NCBI GenBank assembly: GCA_049320885.1
Contig: JBMORA010000045.1
Location: 1 to 64,000 of the forward strand
DNA: 64,000 bases
Direction: 5' to 3'
Source of the DNA: Thermodesulfobacteriota bacterium
GTDB lineage: Bacteria > Desulfobacterota > Desulfobacteria > Desulfobacterales > SURF-7
Shown here in pieces: positions 389-46,495 of the stretch (position 1 is the first letter of the stretch; every line of letters starts with the position of its first letter). The notes beneath the pieces are model-generated. The model saw only the letters and a list, made by a program, of their open reading frames with translations. It did no database searches and was not told the DNA's origin. A program made the position numbers and the translations under genes.

Positions 389-2290
389 TTATTTCACCAC
401 AACCGCGTTGAATTTGCAGCTTTCCCTGCAAATACCGCAACGAATGCACTGGGACGAATCGATGACGTGGACTTTCTTTTTTTCCCCGGTGATGCATTTC
501 TGCGGGCACTGCCGGGCGCAGTTCATGCAGCCGGTGCAAAGCTCCGGATCAATTGCATAGGTGATCAGGTCCTTGCAGACTCCTGCCGGACATTTCTTAT
601 TGCGTATATGAGCCAGATATTCATCCCGGAAATAGCGGATGGTGGTCAGCACCGGATTCGGAGCGCTCGATCCCAGAGCGCACAAGGCCCCGTCCTGGAT
701 TGCTTTTGCCAGGCTGATCAAATCGTCAATATCCTGTTCCGTACCCCGTCCTTTGGCGAAATTTTCCAGAATTTCCCGCATGCGGCTCAACCCCAGCCGG
801 CAGGGTATGCATTTCCCGCAGGACTCTTCTTCCAGAAAACGGAGGAAATAAAGCCCCACGTCAACGACACAATCTTCATCATCCATGACGATCATGGCGC
901 CGGAACCCATCATGGAACCGGCTCTGGTGAGAGCATCGAAATCCACCGGTACGTCTCTCAGAGAATAGGGTATGCATCCGCCGGACGGGCCACCGGTCTG
1001 AACCGCCTTGAAAGGCTTGCCGCCGGGAACGCCTCCGCCGATCTCCTCCACGATCTGCCTCATGGGCACCCCCATGGGGACTTCCACCAGCCCTACGTTG
1101 TTGACCTTGCCAACCAGGGAAAAAACCTTGGTACCGGTGCTGTTAGGCACTCCTAAAGCGGCATACCATTCGGCGCCCTTGTCGATGATCAGGGGCACGT
1201 TCGCCCAGGTTTCCACATTGTTGAGCACGGTCGGCCGGCCCCATAGGCCTTCTTCCACCGAGCGCACATATTTCGGCCTGGGATTTCCCGGCTTGCCTTC
1301 AATGGAGGTAAACAATGCCGTTGACTCGCCGCAAACGAAGGCGCCAGCGCCTCGATTGATTTGGGCATCAAAGGAAAAACCGGAATTCAAAATATTGTCT
1401 CCCAGGAGCCCCAATTCCCTGGCCTGGGCCATGGCGATTTCGAGATGGCGGATGGCCAGCGGATATTCCGCCCGCACATAGAGATACCCTTTTTCAGCTC
1501 CCAACGCATATGCGCCAATGATAAGGCCCTCTAAAACCGCGTGAGGGTCACCTTCCATAATCGTCCGATCCATGAAAGCGCCGGGGTCGCCTTCGTCGCC
1601 GTTGACCACGACGTAAACCGGACGTCCTTTCTTTTCTATGGCCTTCAAAGCGCTGTGCCATTTTCTGCCGGTGGGGAACCCCGCGCCGCCGCGCCCCCGC
1701 AAACCCGACCTTTCCACCTCCGCCACCACCTTCTCCGGCGTCATGACGGTCAAGGCCTTGGCCAGGGCCTGATATCCGCCGGCGGCAATGGTGTCGTAAA
1801 TGTCGCTGGGATCGATTTTGCCGATATTGTGCAGCACCACCCGTTGCTGCAACTTATAAAACGGAATTTCCGCTTCCGTGAGAATGCGTTTGCCGGACGT
1901 TGGATCCTTGTACAGAAGACGTTCCACGGGTTTGCCGTCGATCAAGGTGCTTTGGATGATCTCGGCGACATCCTTTGGCTTGACCTGTTGATAGAAAATC
2001 CCTTGGGGCCGGATCAGTACCAGGGGACCGCGGGAGCAAAAGCCCTGACATCCGGTGGTTTTAATTCCGGGAATCACCTTGGCGTCGATACCGGCCGCTT
2101 TCAGTTCCAGCCGGATTGCCTGGGTCACTTTCGGACTGCCGTTGGCCATACAACCGGTACCATGGCAGACGACAATCTCCGGCCTGGACGGATCCCGGTC
2201 CGCCAGGATTTGTTTGCGCAATTCCTCCAGCTCCGAATGGGAGTTCAACCGCCGAGTATCTGTTTTCAAGGCTGTGCCGGCTTTATACAT
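389..2290 (-). CDS. NuoF/HydB/BamH-like NADH- and FMN-binding subunit with N-terminal thioredoxin-like [2Fe-2S] and C-terminal 2x[4Fe-4S] domains
   Basis: Motifs GLRGRGGAGFPTG, NGDEGDPGAFMDR, GAGAFVCGE, GGPSGGC, ESCGKCIPCR and two CxxCxxCxxxC motifs at the C-terminus. Confidence 0.92.
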   Translation of the reverse strand: MYKAGTALKTDTRRLNSHSELEELRKQILADRDPSRPEIVVCHGTGCMANGSPKVTQAIRLELKAAGIDAKVIPGIKTTGCQGFCSRGPLVLIRPQGIFYQQVKPKDVAEIIQSTLIDGKPVERLLYKDPTSGKRILTEAEIPFYKLQQRVVLHNIGKIDPSDIYDTIAAGGYQALAKALTVMTPEKVVAEVERSGLRGRGGAGFPTGRKWHSALKAIEKKGRPVYVVVNGDEGDPGAFMDRTIMEGDPHAVLEGLIIGAYALGAEKGYLYVRAEYPLAIRHLEIAMAQARELGLLGDNILNSGFSFDAQINRGAGAFVCGESTALFTSIEGKPGNPRPKYVRSVEEGLWGRPTVLNNVETWANVPLIIDKGAEWYAALGVPNSTGTKVFSLVGKVNNVGLVEVPMGVPMRQIVEEIGGGVPGGKPFKAVQTGGPSGGCIPYSLRDVPVDFDALTRAGSMMGSGAMIVMDDEDCVVDVGLYFLRFLEEESCGKCIPCRLGLSRMREILENFAKGRGTEQDIDDLISLAKAIQDGALCALGSSAPNPVLTTIRYFRDEYLAHIRNKKCPAGVCKDLITYAIDPELCTGCMNCARQCPQKCITGEKKKVHVIDSSQCIRCGICRESCKFNAVVVK

Positions 2291-39288: not shown

Positions 39289-40104
39289 TCAGTTTTTCGC
39301 CTTTTTATAGTACCCCACGGCCTCCGGAAGATGCTCCTTGATTTTCCGGATCCGGGTCTCGTCCGACGGATGGGTGCTCAAAAATTCCGGCGGCTTGCCG
39401 CCGCCCGAACCGCCGGACATTCTGGTCCAGAAATCCACGGCTGCCTGGGGGTCGTATCCGGCCATGGCCATGAAGATCAATCCCAGGCGGTCGGCCTCGC
39501 CTTCGTGCAGCCGGCTATAGGGCAGAATCACCCCCACCTGGGAGCCCGCGCCGTAGGCGGTCATCCATAGCTGGCGGGTTTCTTCCGGCTTGTTGGCCAT
39601 GGCCGTGGAAAGGGCCACGCCGCCCAGCTGCACCAGAACTCCCTGGCTCATGCGCTCATCGCCGTGCCGGGCCACCGCATGGGCGATTTCATGTCCCATC
39701 ACCACGGCCAGACCGGTTTCGTCCTTTGCAATGGGCAGGATTCCGGAATATACCACCACTTTCCCGCCGGGCATGCACCAGGCGTTCACTTCCTTGCTTT
39801 CCACCAGGTTGAATTCCCAGGCATATCCCTTCAACAAATGGGACAATTTTTCTTGCGCCATGTAGCGCTCCACCGCGCTCTGAATTTTTTTCCCCACATT
39901 CCGGACCATCTTCACCTGCTTTTCGTCCTTGCTGACCGCATTGGACTTCAGGAACTCGCCGTATTGCTGGTAGCTCATGGACATCATGGTCGAGGCAGGC
40001 ACCAGATCGAGCTGCGTCCTTCCGGTCAACGGAACGGTGCTGCAGGCTGCCGCGAGGAACAGCCCCGGAAACAACAAGACCGTACGGAGAAATTTGGTGC
40101 TCAT
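39289..40104 (-). CDS. M48-family metallopeptidase lipoprotein
   Basis: LAAAC lipobox, NAWCMPGGK, GHEIAH, EADRLG, LSTHP. Confidence 0.93.
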   Translation of the reverse strand: MSTKFLRTVLLFPGLFLAAACSTVPLTGRTQLDLVPASTMMSMSYQQYGEFLKSNAVSKDEKQVKMVRNVGKKIQSAVERYMAQEKLSHLLKGYAWEFNLVESKEVNAWCMPGGKVVVYSGILPIAKDETGLAVVMGHEIAHAVARHGDERMSQGVLVQLGGVALSTAMANKPEETRQLWMTAYGAGSQVGVILPYSRLHEGEADRLGLIFMAMAGYDPQAAVDFWTRMSGGSGGGKPPEFLSTHPSDETRIRKIKEHLPEAVGYYKKAKN

Positions 40105-40385
40105 GTGCTGTCAACTCCTTTACCGCTATGATTTCATTTCATGCTGGTTGTCGGCTCACCGCCAGACTCTTATGTATCCAAGACAACGGCATTTGTAAAC
40201 CCGGACGCTCCCGAAGGGGCTGAAAAACCGTACGCGCCATCCCGGCGGTTTTTTCAAAAAAAATGCCGCGCGGAGCTTTACTTTTTCGATTTGATCATTG
40301 TGGTTCCATCCGGCGGAAGGTCGCCGGCGGCGGCTTTGTTTTATAAATACCACACGGTATCGATTTAATACACCTGTTTTACACG

Positions 40386-40752
40386 GGAAGGTGCCTCCTC
40401 TATCAAAAATCCAGGCCGGAGAACGCTCCGGGACACTGCGCGATGTATGTTTTTCGACCCATCACCTGCCGTCTTTTCGGTTTTTCCGTGACCCGGGATC
40501 GAATGGGCCGGGACAACCTTGCCGCCTGCCGAATCATCCGCCGGACCAGCTCCGCTCTTTTCGAAGCCGCCCGTTCATTTCAATCCGAAGCCCCTTGCTT
40601 GTCGGACATGGGGCTCCGCCTGTACTCCCTGGATCCGAATTCCGGTGACCGGTTGCTGCCCATCAACGAAGCCCTGGAGGCCGCCATCCGCCGCATGGGG
40701 CTGTACCTGCAGATATCCCATGGACGATTGCTGAGCGACCATACCGCAGCGT
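40386..40752 (+). pseudogene. 5'-truncated remnant of a YkgJ-family (CxxCxxCC) gene
   Basis: Frame reads GRCLLY...GHCAMYVFRPITCRLFGF. In-frame TAA at 40344, N-terminal Cys cluster absent, no stop of its own (runs into parA). Boundaries approximate. Confidence 0.6.
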
Positions 40753-40818
40753 ACGGAGGCAAAAACGGAATTCAAGATAAGAAACGAGGTCGATACAACA
40801 TATGGTATATCTTTACTA

Positions 40819-40847
40819 TTGACACACAATGGAGACCATATTACGGT
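40819..40847 (+). promoter_or_regulatory. Possible sigma70 promoter of the parA-CBM48 cassette
   Basis: TTGACA-N17-TACGGT in a locally AT-rich stretch. Confidence 0.4.
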
Positions 40848-40952
40848 ATCCCATCGGGTGATGTATTCAACAGCCGCGGCATCATCATCGGCCATTCCCC
40901 GGGCCGATGCAGACCGGTTTCAGCCGGAAGGACTCCACCAACCGGAGGCGCC

Positions 40953-42014
40953 ATGCGAATCATAGCGATATCGAATCAAAAAGGCGGATGCGGGAAAACC
41001 ACCACGGCGGTGAATCTGTCGGCCTGTCTGGCCCGGAAGGGGAAAAGCGTGCTGTTGATCGATATGGATCCCCAGGCCCATTCCTCCATCGCCCTGAACC
41101 TGGATGTAAAGCAACTTGAAACATCCGTCCGCGATGCCCTGGGGGGACCCGAAACCGGCCGGACCCGGATGGACGAAATCGTCGTTGCCGTCAGCGAGCA
41201 TCTCCATATCGCTCCGGCCGATATCACCCTGAGCGCCCTGGAACAACAGCTGGCCATGGTGCCGGGACGGGAAAACCGGCTCAAGGAAGCCATCGCCGGC
41301 ATGGATCGGGAATATGAATATGTCATCGTGGATTGCCCGCCCAGCCTGGGCCTGTTGACCTTCAACGCCCTGATCGCCGCCACGGAAATCATCGTGCCCC
41401 TGGAAATGAGCTTGTTTTCCCTGCATGGCGTCAGCCGGTTGCTGGAAATCATCGGACTGGTCCGGGAAAAGACCGGTCATGAGCCGCGGATCCGGATCCT
41501 GGCCACCATGGTTGACGATAGAACCAGAATATCGCGGGAAGTCCTGGCGGATATCGGAAGCCATTTTAAGGAGGCCCTCTTCGCCACCCGCATTCATTTT
41601 ACCGTCAAATTGAAGGAAGCCGCCAGTTTCGGCAAATCCATCGTCGATTACGGCAGGGACAGCCGGGGCCGGAGAGACTACCTGGCCCTGACGGAAGAAG
41701 TGATCGCACAAGATAGCCGGCCGGCATCCTCCCGGTTACGGGAAAAAAGCACCATCATTACCAGACAGTTCACGTTGGATGCCCCCCGGGCGGCCTCGGT
41801 GAAAATCGTCGGCACGTTCAACGACTGGACTCCTTCCGAGAAGTCCGCCATGGAACAACGGTCTGACGGCGTCTGGACAAAAGAACTCTCATTGACGCCG
41901 GGCGATTATCAATACCGGTTTCTGGTGGACGATGTCTGGACGGAAGACCACGCCAATCCCCATGCCGTGGACAACGCCTTCGGGGGAAAAAATTCCTGTA
42001 TCACCATCCGCTGA
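40953..42014 (+). CDS. ParA/Soj-family ATPase fused to a C-terminal CBM48/AMPK-beta-like glycogen-binding domain
   Basis: GGAGG RBS before ATG 40953; NQKGGCGKTTT, LIDMDPQ, VDCPPSLG; C-terminal VKIVGTFNDW...GVW...PGDYQYRFLVDDVW...GGKNS. Confidence 0.9.
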   Translation: MRIIAISNQKGGCGKTTTAVNLSACLARKGKSVLLIDMDPQAHSSIALNLDVKQLETSVRDALGGPETGRTRMDEIVVAVSEHLHIAPADITLSALEQQLAMVPGRENRLKEAIAGMDREYEYVIVDCPPSLGLLTFNALIAATEIIVPLEMSLFSLHGVSRLLEIIGLVREKTGHEPRIRILATMVDDRTRISREVLADIGSHFKEALFATRIHFTVKLKEAASFGKSIVDYGRDSRGRRDYLALTEEVIAQDSRPASSRLREKSTIITRQFTLDAPRAASVKIVGTFNDWTPSEKSAMEQRSDGVWTKELSLTPGDYQYRFLVDDVWTEDHANPHAVDNAFGGKNSCITIR

Positions 42015-42025
42015 AAAGGAAGGCC

Positions 42026-42454
42026 ATGGAAAACAAACGCCTCGGCAGAGGGCTGGAACAGATTTCCGACCTGTTTTTATCCACCGGGAAAGAACGGCCA
42101 TCCGCTCTTGATGGTGCCATGTTCGCGGATCCCGTCGATGAATCCGGGTCCGCCCCTCCGCCGGACGGGGAGAAGGAATCCGCGCCCCCTGATCCCCATG
42201 GTGACGGACTGGCGGCCGATCTGTGCGAGGTGGAGGAACAGGTGAGTGTCCGGAAGAACATCACCTTCCCGCTCCTGCCCGACGCCCGGGAAAAGATGTG
42301 GCGGTTGGTTTGCCGGTATCTGGAATCCGGTTACGGTATCAAGCGGATCGAGTTGATCAAAAGCAGCAGAAACGGCAAGCCCGGCCATCAAAAGACCACG
42401 GAAGAGATCGTCTGTATCGGCACCGAAGACCCGCCGCCCGTCATGAATTTTTAG
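42026..42454 (+). CDS. Small protein with an N-terminal ParB-type KRLGRGL peptide (putative ParA partner)
   Basis: AAGGAAGG RBS; 11 nt after the parA stop; MENKRLGRGLEQISDLFLS, an acidic/Pro linker and an unknown C-terminal domain. Confidence 0.8.
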   Translation: MENKRLGRGLEQISDLFLSTGKERPSALDGAMFADPVDESGSAPPPDGEKESAPPDPHGDGLAADLCEVEEQVSVRKNITFPLLPDAREKMWRLVCRYLESGYGIKRIELIKSSRNGKPGHQKTTEEIVCIGTEDPPPVMNF

Positions 42455-43706
42455 AACCGGCCGCAAGGGTCAGCCGCGTCATTTCATCCCCCCAGGCCAG
42501 CGCATCCCGGAAAGCCTTTCTGACCTTCCCACCGTCGAGTCCCAGATTTTGAATGGCTTTTTCCGCCGCGTCCCACTGGCCTTCCTCGATGATTTCCGAC
42601 AGTCGCAGGAGCGGAGCGTATTCATTGTTCGCATCCCGGCACAGGGCGGATTTCAGTTTGTCCTCCAGGGGCAGGTATTGGACGATTTCCGGCATGGGAC
42701 GGTTGATCATGGCGTCCAGCAGGGAGAACATTCCCAGCAGAAACAGGCTTTCCGGATTGAAGCCCCAGAAATCGTGGTCTCTTGCGATCTGTTCCAGGAA
42801 TTTGCCCCGCTGGGCTGACAGCACCACCAATTCCGAGCCTTTCTGGCTCTGGGCCATGTCGTTCAGCACCACGACCCGGACCCAGTTCCGCATTTTTTTC
42901 CAGCCCAGCATGTTGATGGCGTCCCGGATGGACTGGATCTTCTGACGAAAGCCATAGGCAGCGGAATTGATATAGGACAGCAACCGGAAACTGATGGAAA
43001 CATCCGTGCGGATGGCCTCGCTCAGTCGTTCCAGATCAGGGTCTTCCTGTTCGATCAGACGCATCAACTGCAGGCGGCTCACCTGATTGGACGATAGTTT
43101 TTTCACGCTGATCTGTTCCGGCTGCTTGAAATATCCGCCCTGAAACAACTGAAAACCCACATCCTTGCAGACCGTCATCAGGGGCTGGCTCTGGACCTGT
43201 CCGGCCAGGGACAGACAACCGAAGGGCTCGATCTTTTTCTGGAATCCGTTCAATTCATCCCGGTTTTGTCCGGCGACTTCCACATGGACGATGTCCGCGA
43301 TTTTCAACAGGGATTCAGGCGTGGCTCCACCCGCCGCCTCCACCACCAGCATATATCCGTCGGCTTTCAATTGGGCGAGGGTGTCCTCGAATCCCGGTTC
43401 GCCGGCGGGGCGGCCGAGAATTTTCACCGCCGTCCGCTTCGGTGGCAGCGCATACGGCAGTTTGTCCAATACATTTTTGGCCGAGAACCGGACCATGATT
43501 TTCCGTCCGTGGTCCAGCATCTGCTGCAGGCCCATGTAAGTGCCGGAAGCCAGGGTGCCGGCCACCGTGTCCGTATCGAACTCGACGGCCGCGAGCTGTC
43601 CGGCTCCGGAAACCGCGAAGAGTTCATATCCCCACAGATGCTGTTCGGCGTCGAAAATCGGCTGTCGCGCCAGGGATAATGCTGCGACCTCTTTCCCAGT
43701 TGTCAT
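42441..43706 (-). CDS. EAL-like + HDOD domain protein
   Basis: ARQPIFD...GYELF, LFQGGYF, D...RLLSYINSAAYG, FLLGMFSLLDA. Confidence 0.88.
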   Translation of the reverse strand: MTTGKEVAALSLARQPIFDAEQHLWGYELFAVSGAGQLAAVEFDTDTVAGTLASGTYMGLQQMLDHGRKIMVRFSAKNVLDKLPYALPPKRTAVKILGRPAGEPGFEDTLAQLKADGYMLVVEAAGGATPESLLKIADIVHVEVAGQNRDELNGFQKKIEPFGCLSLAGQVQSQPLMTVCKDVGFQLFQGGYFKQPEQISVKKLSSNQVSRLQLMRLIEQEDPDLERLSEAIRTDVSISFRLLSYINSAAYGFRQKIQSIRDAINMLGWKKMRNWVRVVVLNDMAQSQKGSELVVLSAQRGKFLEQIARDHDFWGFNPESLFLLGMFSLLDAMINRPMPEIVQYLPLEDKLKSALCRDANNEYAPLLRLSEIIEEGQWDAAEKAIQNLGLDGGKVRKAFRDALAWGDEMTRLTLAAGSKNS

Positions 43707-43756: not shown

Positions 43757-46255
43757 TTACAGCGGCAGGGGTTTCATCCCCCAGATATTTCTGGCGTACT
43801 CCATCACCGCCCGGTCACTGGAGAATTTCCCCATGTTGGCGGTGTTCAGGATGGACCGTCGCGCCCAGTCCTCCTGGTTCTGATAGGCCAGGCTGACCTG
43901 TTCCTGGGCCTCGATGTAGGAACGGTAATCCGCCAGCACCATGTAATAGTCCCCGTGATCCATCAACGACTGGATGATCGGTGAAAACAGCCAGGGTTCG
44001 GCGGGGGAGAAATACCCGTTGTTGATCATTTCCAGCACCTTTCTCAGTTCCGCATCCTGGCGATAGATATCCCGCGGGTTGTATCCGCCGCCGCGCATCT
44101 GGTCCACTTCATGGGATTTCATCCCGAAAATGAAGATATTGTCCGGCCCCACCTCCTCGAGAATTTCGACATTGGCCCCATCCATGGTGCCGATGGTCAA
44201 GGCGCCGTTGAGGGCGAATTTCATGTTGCCCGTGCCCGACGCTTCCATGCCGGCGGTGGAAATCTGCTCTGACAGCTCCGCGGCCGGAATAATCTTTTCC
44301 GCCTGGGAAATGCAATAGTTCGGCAGGAAAATAACCTTCAGTTTGCCACGCACTTCCGGATCACCGTTGATTTTTTCGGCAATGGAATTGATCAGTTTGA
44401 TGATCAGCTTGGCGCGATAATAAGCGGGCGCCGCCTTGCCTGCGAAAATCACCGTGCGGGGGGCAATGGGGGCCGTCGAACCCTCGATGATCCGGCAGTA
44501 GAGAGTGATCACATGCAGGGCGTTCAGGAGCTGCCGCTTGTATTCGTGGATCCGTTTGACATGCACATCGAACAGGGTATCCGGATTGACCCCCATCCCG
44601 GTTTTACGCAAAATATAGCGCGCCAGGCGTTTCTTGTTGTTGCGCTTCACCGCCAGCCAGGCGGAGCGGAACGCGGCGTCCCCGGCATACGGGATCAGCC
44701 GCTTCAACTGATCCAGCTCCGTGACCCATCCCGGGCCGATGGTCCCGGTGATCAGTTCCGACAGTTCCGGATTGGCCTGACGGAGCCAGCGCCGGGGGGT
44801 GATGCCGTTGGTGACGTTTTTCAGCTTGCCGGGAAACACCCGGTCGAATCCGCTGAACATGCCCTCTTTCAAGATGCGGCTGTGCAGCTCCGCCACCCCG
44901 TTCACCGAGTGGCTGCCGATGATGGCCAGATAGGCCATGCGCACTTTCTTGACATCGCCCTCCTGAATGATGGACAGCCGGGACAGCAACTCGGGCTGAT
45001 CCGGGTACCGCTGTTTGATGTCCTCCAGGAACCGGTGGTTGATCTCGTAGATGATTTCCAGATGCCGGGGCAACAGACGGCCGATCAGGGACACCGGCCA
45101 GGTCTCCAGGGCCTCGGGCATGACCGTATGATTCGTGTAGGCAAAGGTTCTGGTGCAGATCCCCCAGGCATCCTCCCATTCCAGCCCCTCCTCGTCGATG
45201 AGCAGGCGCATGCATTCCGGAATCGCGATGGCCGGGTGGGTGTCGTTCAGCTGGATGGCCACGTAATCCGGAAAATACACGAAGGACTGTTGCTGTTTCC
45301 GGTATCTCCGAAAAATGTCCTGCATGGTGGCGGAAACGAAAAAATATTGCTGCCGCAGCCTCAGGGTCCGGCCCTGCTCCTGCTCGTCACTGGGATACAG
45401 CACCTTGGAAATGGTCTCGCTCAGCACCTTGTTTTCCACGGCGCCGATATAGTTGCCCTGGTTGAAATAATCCAGGTTGAATTCCCGGCTCGATTTGGCG
45501 GTCCAGAGCCGCATGTTGGTGACAAAATCGTCGCCGTACCCGGGAATCAGGATGTCACAGGGCATGGCCATGACCCCTTCCGTATCCACCCAGCGGCAGC
45601 GCCTCCTGCCTTCCACATCGGTGTATATCTCCGAACGGCCGTAAAAACGCACGGTATACAGCTGTTCGCGCCGCTTGATTTCCCAGGGATTGCCGCGCCT
45701 CATCCAGTTGTCGCTCTGTTCCTGCTGGTAGCCGTTCACCAGTACCTGATGGAAGATGCCGTAATCGTAACGGATGCCGTAGCCGTAGCCCGGCAGACGC
45801 AAGCGCGCCATGGAATCCATATAGCAGGAGGCCAGCCGTCCCAATCCGCCGTTGCCCAACCCGGAATCCCACTCTTCCTCCTCGATGTCGTCCAGGTCGA
45901 ATCCGATGTCGCGGGTCGTATCCGCGGCCGCCTTTTCCATGCCGAGACTGATCAGGTAGTTCTTGAGAAAACGCCCGGGAAGAAATTCCAGGGAGAGATA
46001 ATAGACCCGTTTGGCGAGGCTGTCATAACAGGCCCGCTGGGTCTTGATCCATTTCTGAATCAGGCGTTCCCGCAGGCTGAAAGCCAGGCCGGTGAAACAG
46101 CTGTATCGGTTGGGCATATCCGGATCGCCGCCGAGGGTGGACAAAATATGACGCCGGATGTCCTCATTCAGATGCCGGATGTCTTCTTTCGGTCCGCCTG
46201 GCTCCGTCTTCCCGCCCGGCTCCATGGGGTTATCGGATGGTGAACGCTTGGGCAT
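43757..46255 (-). CDS. glgP: Glycogen/starch phosphorylase
   Basis: GLGNGGLGRLASC, QLNDTHP, KRIHEYKRQ, EASGTGNMKF (PLP Lys); start ATG 46255 with GGAGG RBS. Confidence 0.97.
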   Translation of the reverse strand: MPKRSPSDNPMEPGGKTEPGGPKEDIRHLNEDIRRHILSTLGGDPDMPNRYSCFTGLAFSLRERLIQKWIKTQRACYDSLAKRVYYLSLEFLPGRFLKNYLISLGMEKAAADTTRDIGFDLDDIEEEEWDSGLGNGGLGRLASCYMDSMARLRLPGYGYGIRYDYGIFHQVLVNGYQQEQSDNWMRRGNPWEIKRREQLYTVRFYGRSEIYTDVEGRRRCRWVDTEGVMAMPCDILIPGYGDDFVTNMRLWTAKSSREFNLDYFNQGNYIGAVENKVLSETISKVLYPSDEQEQGRTLRLRQQYFFVSATMQDIFRRYRKQQQSFVYFPDYVAIQLNDTHPAIAIPECMRLLIDEEGLEWEDAWGICTRTFAYTNHTVMPEALETWPVSLIGRLLPRHLEIIYEINHRFLEDIKQRYPDQPELLSRLSIIQEGDVKKVRMAYLAIIGSHSVNGVAELHSRILKEGMFSGFDRVFPGKLKNVTNGITPRRWLRQANPELSELITGTIGPGWVTELDQLKRLIPYAGDAAFRSAWLAVKRNNKKRLARYILRKTGMGVNPDTLFDVHVKRIHEYKRQLLNALHVITLYCRIIEGSTAPIAPRTVIFAGKAAPAYYRAKLIIKLINSIAEKINGDPEVRGKLKVIFLPNYCISQAEKIIPAAELSEQISTAGMEASGTGNMKFALNGALTIGTMDGANVEILEEVGPDNIFIFGMKSHEVDQMRGGGYNPRDIYRQDAELRKVLEMINNGYFSPAEPWLFSPIIQSLMDHGDYYMVLADYRSYIEAQEQVSLAYQNQEDWARRSILNTANMGKFSSDRAVMEYARNIWGMKPLPL

Positions 46256-46495
46256 GAATTGTCCTCCGGTGAAACGCAAGGGTCGGTTAGGGGTTTTCCG
46301 ATACGGGGGAGTCAAAACCGTCGGGCCATCAGGGGCTTTCCGGCAGTACGGCGCATCGGATATGGCGGCTTGAAGCCACCGGCGCCCGATCCGCGCCGCC
46401 GGCTTCAATTGTTGGTGTTGTATAATACTATATAGGGTATACGAATTCCACCGTTTGATCAAGAGGAAGATCAACAGAGGAAGAACAGCCGGCCT

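Follow-up and report, generated by a model that had tools for sequence, protein, structure and literature searches.

Introduction

ParA/MinD ATPases position chromosomes, plasmids, carboxysomes, chemoreceptor arrays and division sites, and glycogen is the main carbon store of many bacteria. In the stretch of DNA analysed here, 64,000 nucleotides from a Thermodesulfobacteriota bacterium and referred to throughout as the window, a ParA-type ATPase with a C-terminal glycogen-binding module is followed directly by a small gene, which raises the question of what the 142-aa product of that gene does beside such an ATPase. A reasonably probable answer, developed below, is that it serves as a dedicated ATPase-activating partner of the upstream ParA-CBM48 protein, in a glycogen-associated ParA system; we refer to it as the partner.

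Architecture of the partner protein

Positions 42026–42454 are a real, conserved protein-coding gene (Table 1). Its product begins with the peptide MENKRLGRGLEQISDLFLS, continues through a Pro/acidic disordered linker and ends in a C-domain of about 70 aa. Residues 6–13 read LGRGLEQI (L6-G-R8-G-L10-E-Q-I13), the basic residues of the peptide are K4, R5 and R8, the linker (residues 21–64) is rich in Pro and Asp/Glu, and the chain closes with ...EDPPPVMNF, W92 being its sole tryptophan. An AlphaFold2 model built on 64 family members places a short helix at residues 10–17, with low pLDDT around it, and gives the linker pLDDT 55–62; residues ~70–135, by contrast with these at pLDDT 92–97, form an extended segment, a helix (87–100) and a beta-hairpin (107–118 and 121–132).

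Neither Pfam nor NCBIfam contained a family matching the partner at E<=1, and ParB_N (with its GxxRxxA motif), HTH_ParB and ParB_C were not detected in it at that threshold, while the canonical ParB of the same genome, encoded on contig C27 directly after a 264-aa ParA, scored on all three (ParB_N 1.2e-33, HTH_ParB 1.5e-38, ParB_C 7.2e-9). The open reading frame, the model and the family searches thus agree with a sequence-only reading of this DNA, which had described an LGRGL N-terminus, a Pro/acidic linker and an approximately 70-aa domain of no known family, and had recognised neither GxxRxxA nor a helix-turn-helix. Around the pair, Rfam gave 0 matches at E<=0.1 over 40000–42600; between 40100 and 42700 a promoter scan returned 0 promoter-like sites, and terminator-like sites were no commoner than in shuffles.

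Table 1. Features of the ParA-CBM48–partner locus (positions in the window).
Feature	Position	Strand	Basis
ParA/MinD-type ATPase with C-terminal CBM48/AMPK-beta glycogen-binding domain, 353 aa	40953..42014	+	Pfam; orthologue alignment
ATPase domain of that protein, aa 1-255			
Variable linker of that protein, aa 256-272			
CBM of that protein, aa 273-353	41769-42011		
Spacer from ParA stop to partner start, 11 nt	42015..42025	+	Purine-rich, Shine-Dalgarno-like AAAGGAAGG, read directly
Partner ORF, 142 codons; product starts MENKRLGRGLEQISDLFLSTG	42026..42454	+	Read from sequence
Partner residues 1-20, predicted ParB-type ParA-binding peptide MENKRLGRGLEQISDLFLST	42026..42085	+	Sequence, alignment, modelled helix 10-17, match to ParB motif core
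Partner residues 21-64, Pro/acidic disordered linker	42086..42217	+	pLDDT 55-62; 64-member alignment
Partner residues 65-142 and stop, conserved C-domain, tail PPPVMNF	42218..42454	+	pLDDT 92-97; conservation
HDOD-domain gene, convergent; 3' end overlaps partner 3' end by 14 nt	42441..43706	-	Pfam HDOD 3.1e-17
Glycogen phosphorylase GlgP (context)	43757..46474	-	Pfam Phosphorylase, 1093 bits

The upstream ATPase carries an AMPK-beta-like glycogen-binding module

The upstream open reading frame is listed from 40443, and its start was reset to 40953 (MRIIAISNQKGGCGKTT) by alignment of ten orthologues (the window's and nine others). In Pfam the protein matches AAA_31 (1.1e-52), AMPK1_CBM (3.4e-12) and CBM_48 (3.2e-5), and also CbiA and MipZ. 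The ATPase domain has an intact deviant Walker A motif (KGGCGKT), is 39% identical to the chromosomal ParA of its own genome and keeps a D-x-R-T motif, which we take to be part of the Soj DNA-binding surface; from this identity and these positions, ParA-CBM48 probably binds the nucleoid.

The closest solved relatives of the CBM48 module are AMPK-beta glycogen-binding domains. The module aligns to the AMPK beta-1 glycogen-binding domain chains 1Z0N/1Z0M with an E value of 7.6e-6, and the two share matching FN-W, QY[KR]F, W-T-[DE]-D and N residues, presumably the sugar-contacting positions.

The partner belongs to a rare family conserved at its two ends

A first, word-indexed search retrieved three relatives; together with the partner they made up a four-sequence profile, with which 1.84 billion representatives were searched, and matches at E<=0.001 numbered 85 proteins (60 of them at E<=1e-10). 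These amount to 85 clusters at 50% identity with lengths of 51–204 aa, and the profile search, run against the same representatives with no length limit, returned no fused or longer form of the C-domain above 204 aa at E<=0.001. This is a rare family whose centre lies in the Desulfobacterales, with members in metagenome-assembled genomes of Desulfobacterales and of Desulfosudis oleivorans; in a 401-genome sample of the phylum, full partner matches occurred only in G000 and two other genomes.

Conservation was read from an alignment of 64 full-length members, 23 of 87 sequences having been left out as fragments or for a missing or altered N-terminus. It is concentrated at the two ends of the protein, the peptide and the C-domain, and the linker between them varies freely in length and sequence. 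In the first half of the peptide, M1 is found in 63 of the 64 members, K4 in 49, L6 in 41, G7 in 45, R8 in 52 (with K in another 4), G9 in 42 (E in 20) and L10 in 57; further on, E/D11 is kept in 51, I/V/L13 in all 64, S/A/T14 in 62, F17 in 61, L/I/M18 in 63 and S/T19 in all 64. The family consensus of the peptide is accordingly R-x-L-[ED]-x-[IV]-S-x-x-F-h-S, of which LGRGL is the commonest form, and the strict pattern LG[RK]G[LF] occurs in 37 of the 64. Within the C-domain, K/R77 and K/R112 are present in every aligned member, E71 and Y/F103 in 63 each, L110 in 61, E127 in 57 and Q88 in 54. A four-cysteine domain (C-x2-C...C...C) replaces the linker in 23 of the 64 members, the window's partner being among those that do without it. 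Taken together, the partner represents an unnamed, new family of a known kind, a ParA/MinD ATPase plus a peptide-bearing partner.

ParA and partner genes form a conserved pair

A locus search with the four-sequence alignment gave three genome loci, and the full set comprised 11: the window, a contig from GTDB, and nine regions out of the samples of the order and the phylum. A same-strand ParA gene lies directly upstream of the partner in 10 of these 11 loci. In eight, the window included, it is a ParA-CBM48; in two (L026 and L031) it is a ParA orthologue with an acidic tail in place of the CBM. In the remaining genome (G528) the partner stands alone, and a CBM-less ParA orthologue of 47% identity is encoded on another contig. 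The sequence-only reading had named beforehand the loss of the LGRGL peptide downstream of ParA-CBM48 genes as the observation that would count against it; the peptide is kept in all eight genome loci that have a ParA-CBM48 together with a member of this family.

Metagenomes scanned with the pattern KxLGRGL[EDK][DE]I yielded 72 loci, 64 of them with a full family ORF and 53 with enough upstream sequence for assessment. A same-strand ParA gene was found directly upstream in 52 of the 53 (49 with a CBM and 3 without; L083 has none), and the gaps between ParA and partner in these 52 loci run from -31 to 170 nt. The 52 of 53 overstates the independent support, because the metagenome loci are close relatives (at 70% identity they make up about 13 clusters, the biggest of which has 39 members) and because the pattern requires, and so biases toward, LGRGL forms. 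The ParA and partner genes form a conserved, tightly spaced pair.

The phyletic pattern follows the same line. Of 201 genomes sampled evenly from the order, 13 have the ParA clade at E<=1e-60; a full partner (E<=1e-5) occurs in 7 of them, and the 188 without the ParA clade have none. One further genome (G103) holds ParA fragments followed by a truncated 71-aa partner, which indicates that the pair is decaying together. Synteny, joint decay and phyletic co-occurrence support a tie between the partner and the upstream ParA-CBM48.

The N-terminal peptide as a candidate ParA-facing module

Six further genomes have a ParA of this clade, and in five of them ParA is adjacent to a gene for a protein of 279–329 aa without a Pfam family. 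In four of these loci (L041–L044) the ParA has a CBM and the gene for the 279–329 aa protein lies directly downstream; in the fifth (L045) the ParA is without a CBM and that gene is convergent. The five proteins resemble the partner family only at their N-termini (GRTLEEVSHFFLS, GRRLEKVSHFFLS, ARGIEEVSHFFLS, ERRLEEVAHFFLS and GYGLDQVAHYFLS), and the peptide of this second partner class (~280–330 aa) takes the form R-x-LEEVSHFFLS, without the two glycines. The same class of peptide thus occurs on two unrelated bodies beside one ParA clade, which suggests that the peptide is a ParA-facing module, and we regard this arrangement as the strongest comparative argument that it would face the ATPase. 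According to the passages of PMC10241942 on ParA/MinD partners, partners that are otherwise unrelated have a charged, disordered N-terminal peptide facing the ATPase as their common element.

The nearest precedent for the peptide itself is ParB. According to the passages of PMC12462528 on the Myxococcus xanthus protein, ParB's ParA-binding motif comprises L11, R13, L15 and L18; the ParB peptide is a short helix held in a hydrophobic pocket of both ParA subunits through L11, L15, L18 and one neighbouring hydrophobic residue; R13 contacts an acidic patch and is not an arginine finger; and ATPase stimulation is much stronger when two peptides are joined by the closed ParB clamp. Residues L6-G-R8-G-L10-E-Q-I13 of the partner reproduce the core of the ParB motif as given in those passages, L-G-R-G-L-[DE]-x-[LI]. 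The motif of the genome's own ParB starts ...KKVALGRGLDALFPD, with LGRGLDAL where the partner has LGRGLEQI.

We then folded two copies of ParA (residues 1–260) with ATP, Mg and residues 1–40 of the partner, each chain with its own alignment. The ipSAE values were 0.23, 0.49 and 0.43 (median 0.43), the best of three controls scored 0.00, contacts agreed to 66% or more and the pLDDT of the partner was 44 or higher. Of 157 solved complexes, 116 reach the mark applied to ipSAE, as do 2 of 215 mismatches, and the band at or below 0.60, into which this fold falls, holds 18 of the 157 together with both passing mismatches. As ParA–peptide complexes have already been solved, likeness or memory may also contribute to the score. 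We therefore count the fold as weak support, a small upward nudge, for the predicted binding of the peptide to ParA. The structure prediction of a ParA dimer with the peptide, which the sequence-only reading had proposed, thus separated from its controls while staying in the low band. Its description of the protein as a minimal ParB mimic holds for the ParB-type peptide without any ParB domain and for the synteny with ParA-CBM48, and is weakly backed by the fold as regards binding.

A confidently modelled C-domain and its possible role

The C-domain, for which structure prediction had likewise been suggested at the outset, was modelled with confidence within the whole protein, and neither Foldseek nor VIA found a matching fold for it in the PDB. 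Foldseek returned no PDB match at E<=0.001, there were no sequence relatives of the partner in the PDB, and the feature matches of the partner in the ESM Atlas all lay at 0.80 or lower, within the range of shuffled sequences. Three candidates were set aside. Ribosomal protein L26 appeared in the PDB profile search with an E value of 0.15, taken as chance; a wide VIA alignment reached a best Z of 2.1, with the p53 tetramerisation domain matched over 29 residues among its results, which is too weak; and DUF4177 (PF13783), a structural lead from the Atlas with a TM score of 0.57–0.63, below the bar for naming, had a probability of 1.9% in hhalign against three DUF4177 sequences, and its family HMM had no match in the window's own genome.

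Any role for the C-domain is a guess, given that it has no recognisable relatives. Conserved hydrophobic residues line both faces of the second hairpin strand (one face has 129, 131 and 133, the opposite face 130 and 132). We infer from this that its own helix is not the domain's sole packing surface, the other being a second copy or a partner. The C-domain is also kept where the ParA is without CBM48 (L026, L031, G528, L050, L076 and L079). Two of the 10 linked genome ParAs and 3 of the 52 metagenome ParAs are of this kind, so the C-domain is not tied to CBM48 and the pair is not intrinsically tied to glycogen.

Locus context and alternative readings

In the window and in two same-genus genomes (L023 and L024) the pair has GlgP as a neighbour; in four further loci (L017, L078, L086 and L090) a Glyco_transf_5 gene (glycogen/starch synthase) lies directly downstream of the partner, beginning in L017 3 nt past the partner stop. 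These seven loci are what recommends an account in which ParA-CBM48, bound to glycogen, is a scaffold that depends on ATP and either draws in or keeps out GlgP and GlgA, with the C-domain binding such an enzyme and the peptide resetting the switch. In most loci, however, the two genes closest to the pair on each side include no glycogen enzyme, and the commonest third gene encodes a protein of about 228 aa, unknown and not an enzyme of a known family; as a metabolic switch the pair is rather unlikely. The HDOD-domain gene is context only, and the same arrangement is seen in a same-genus genome (G197, locus L023).

A different function has been put forward for ParA-CBM proteins themselves. The sections of the preprint by Li, Burroughs and Aravind (2026; bioRxiv 10.64898/2026.10.19.760177) that deal with them place ParA-CBM (core system ConB5) among conflict systems and describe it, from rapid CBM divergence, as a putative immune sensor. 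On that account, ParA-CBM would detect a carbohydrate signal of infection and multimerise to limit it, the partner being a regulator that holds ParA off until it is triggered. One CBM-less variant (L031) does adjoin AAA_15/AAA_21 and DUF4276 genes and a DEAD/MrfA-type helicase. In this clade, by contrast, there is no linked effector gene and no defence neighbourhood: from 17.7 kb on, the window is a housekeeping region with a PPDK-like enzyme, aconitase, citrate synthase and fumarase, the thiamine synthesis genes ThiC/ThiE/ThiG, and GlgP, and genes for glycogen synthase or phosphorylase abut the pair. PADLOC returned nothing for the partner and P-loop-level matches only for ParA-CBM48. Nor is the CBM fast-evolving here, its mean pairwise identity over eight CBM-bearing orthologues being 58% against 64% for the ATPase. 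Since this clade shows glycogen enzymes but neither an effector, a defence neighbourhood nor rapid divergence of the CBM, we think the immune reading quite improbable for this pair. In the literature on ParA with glycogen, CBM48 or positioning, we found no description beyond this preprint and no experimental study of glycogen handling.

In a further reading the partner is a decoy that vies with ParB for binding to the chromosomal ParA (Soj) and thereby links carbon storage to chromosome segregation or to the control of replication. The near match of the first eight motif positions to those of ParB suggests it, but we hold it to be highly improbable, given the strict linkage to its own ParA paralogue, not to parAB, and an S-x-x-F-h-S extension (S/T19 in 64 of 64, F17 in 61 of 64) that ParB lacks and that may plausibly determine specificity. 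The family-specific S14-x-x-F17-L-S19 could indeed be what keeps the partner from cross-talk with the chromosomal pair.

A proposed mechanism for glycogen positioning

If the partner is a dedicated activator of ParA-CBM48, as we favour, ATP-bound ParA-CBM48 dimers would hold glycogen particles through their two CBM48 modules and would probably be located on the nucleoid, as the related chromosomal ParAs are. The partner would work like ParB in the sequence of its peptide and more like MinE in size and layout, and its C-domain would most likely join two or more peptides by self-association, tether the protein to the glycogen particle or to the enzymes associated with it, or do both. Through rounds of binding and release, the cell's glycogen stores could thereby be dispersed or held in place. 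The standard ratchet, in which the partner is bound to the cargo, does not carry over directly to the ParA-CBM48 system, because the cargo-binding domain is on the ATPase itself. A more elaborate, self-organising version with a new layout can be drawn, in which the ATPase holds the glycogen, a soluble MinE-like antagonist with a ParB-type peptide cycles the attachment between glycogen and nucleoid, and ancestral long forms with a HiPIP-like [4Fe-4S] domain gate glycogen distribution or access by redox, the window protein being a streamlined form that has lost the sensor; we hold this version to be unlikely.

Should the peptide act as proposed, the family would show that ParB's activating peptide can part from the whole of the DNA-binding machinery and be carried by a very small new domain. 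ParA-CBM48 and the partner would make up a minimal two-gene system (353 and 142 aa) that could be reconstituted. In E. coli, glycogen condensates displace nucleoids and skew division, as reported in PMC12706056, so a device that positions or anchors glycogen would have a clear use.

Comparison with known systems

Among known systems, ParB/Spo0J is the closest in the peptide. Both proteins have the L-G-R-G-L-[DE]-x-[LI] core (as given in the motif passages of PMC12462528) at the extreme N-terminus before a disordered stretch, both are encoded directly after the gene of a ParA-type ATPase, and in both the peptide is a short helix, a predicted one in the partner. The partner differs in having no ParB_N CTPase, no HTH and no ParB_C, and hence would form no clamp on parS or DNA, and in having the S-x-x-F-h-S extension, a novel 70-aa domain and a cognate ATPase with a glycogen-binding module.

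MinE is small, with an N-terminal helix that contacts the ATPase and a small alpha/beta C-terminal domain, and it binds no cargo DNA. The partner resembles it in layout, which we regard as a likeness of working and not as homology. Pfam gave no MinE match to the partner at E<=1, and MinE was absent from the Foldseek and VIA rows of the fold search, although the arrangement may be similar all the same; no membrane-targeting sequence was seen, and the cognate ATPase is ParA-like, not MinD-like.

McdB is marked by an invariant C-terminal tryptophan and a central coiled coil, whereas the partner shows no coiled coil in its model and no invariant tryptophan in its C-terminal tail (PPPVMNF). Like McdB and PomX (passages of PMC10241942; see also PMC7993993 and PMC11321042), the partner has no conserved family, a charged N-terminal peptide through which it would meet its ATPase, and a gene beside that of its ATPase. 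Unlike them, it has a peptide of the chromosomal ParB type, and the cargo module (CBM48) sits on the ATPase and not on the partner.

The ParA-CBM system ConB5 and the window's ParA agree in combining ParA with a C-terminal AMPK1_CBM in one ORF. The ConB5 passages of the preprint (bioRxiv 10.64898/2026.10.19.760177) describe two extensions of the core, one adding an upstream transmembrane protein that bears another CBM, the other an additional, inactive ParA together with an inactive REase; a small peptide-bearing partner does not appear in its main-text section 29 or in its passages on CBM, ConB5, glycogen and ParB. Neither extension is present in the window, where the remnant of a CxxCxxCC-type gene lies upstream of ParA-CBM48, and the 142-aa partner and then the convergent HDOD-domain gene lie downstream. 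ParA-CBM with a small partner is a third variant of the ParA-CBM system, and the pair offers a direct test between the positioning and the immune-sensor readings of ParA-CBM proteins.

Sequences upstream of the ParA gene

Window features and the related loci discussed here are collected in the table. The conserved block lies approximately 110-130 nt 5' of the ParA start in the genomes compared, and its layout consists of a T-rich run followed by TTGACACACAAT...CCATATTACGG. A simple sigma-70 scan called no promoter at the block, and Rfam returned no match for it. Further upstream, the CxxCxxCC-type remnant aligns with residues 78-199 of an intact 199-aa homologue located upstream of ParA in G111, a genome of the same genus, at 55% identity; the counterpart of that homologue's N-terminal 77 residues, which include the Cys motif, was not found. 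Because the remnant's reading frame enters ParA without a stop, the ORF list contains a 523-aa product.

Coordinates of features in the window and in compared genome or metagenome loci (L numbers)
Feature	Location	Strand	Remark
CxxCxxCC-type (PF03692) gene remnant	window 40386-40751	+	match to intact homologue in G111
Conserved block	window 40796-40850		TTGACA at 40819-40824; conserved in three genomes
HDOD-domain protein, 421 aa	window 42441-43706	-	convergent with partner
Long-form partner	L025:8689-9240	-	example of the long form
Third gene	L049:5665-6348	+	directly downstream of partner
Third gene	L025:7908-8585	-	directly downstream of partner
Decayed ParA and partner pair	L125 (G103:C240) 942-1686		split ParA, then truncated partner
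Second-class partner	L041:2576-3565		ParA neighbour with CBM48
Second-class partner	L042:1453-2361		ParA neighbour with CBM48
Second-class partner	L043:481-1449	-	ParA neighbour with CBM48
Second-class partner	L044:2629-3609		ParA neighbour with CBM48
Second-class partner	L045:2471-3310	-	ParA neighbour without CBM

Long partner forms and neighbouring genes

Of 64 aligned members of the small family, 23 have a C-x2-C-x12-C-x25-C domain that separates the peptide from the C-domain; these long forms measure approximately 180-200 aa, and the domain is absent from the 142-aa partner of the window. The four-cysteine region was modelled at moderate confidence (pLDDT 64-76), and all ten best VIA matches of the long-form model were either HiPIP or the small [4Fe-4S] subunits found in glycyl radical enzymes of the benzylsuccinate-synthase type (Z 2.7-3.5, rmsd 2.3-3.9 Å, 42-51 residues). 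These model matches provide a weak lead that long-form partners may bind iron-sulfur clusters.

A third gene follows the partner directly on the same strand in L049, in L025 and in no fewer than 26 further metagenome loci. Its product (approximately 225-245 aa) is 69-97% identical among loci and has no Pfam match; in the window's own genome, a six-frame HMM search detected no copy of the gene. The HDOD gene, which overlaps the partner gene by 14 nt in the window, also neighbours the partner in genome G197. Its HDOD domain is limited to residues 212-327, with the N-terminal half (approximately 200 aa) lacking a domain assignment. In the decayed pair of genome G103, ParA is broken into fragments 942-1304 and 1214-1390, and the 71-aa truncated partner retains the peptide and the beginning of the C-domain.

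A second partner class

At five loci from other families of the order, the gene next to the same ParA clade encodes a partner of a second class, 279-329 aa long, for which Pfam likewise returned no match. The N-terminal peptide class R-x-LEEVSHFFLS is the only part common to this class and the small family. A possible counterpart of the second-class partner is the 'second inactive ParA' described in the preprint by Li et al. (bioRxiv 10.64898/2026.10.19.760177).
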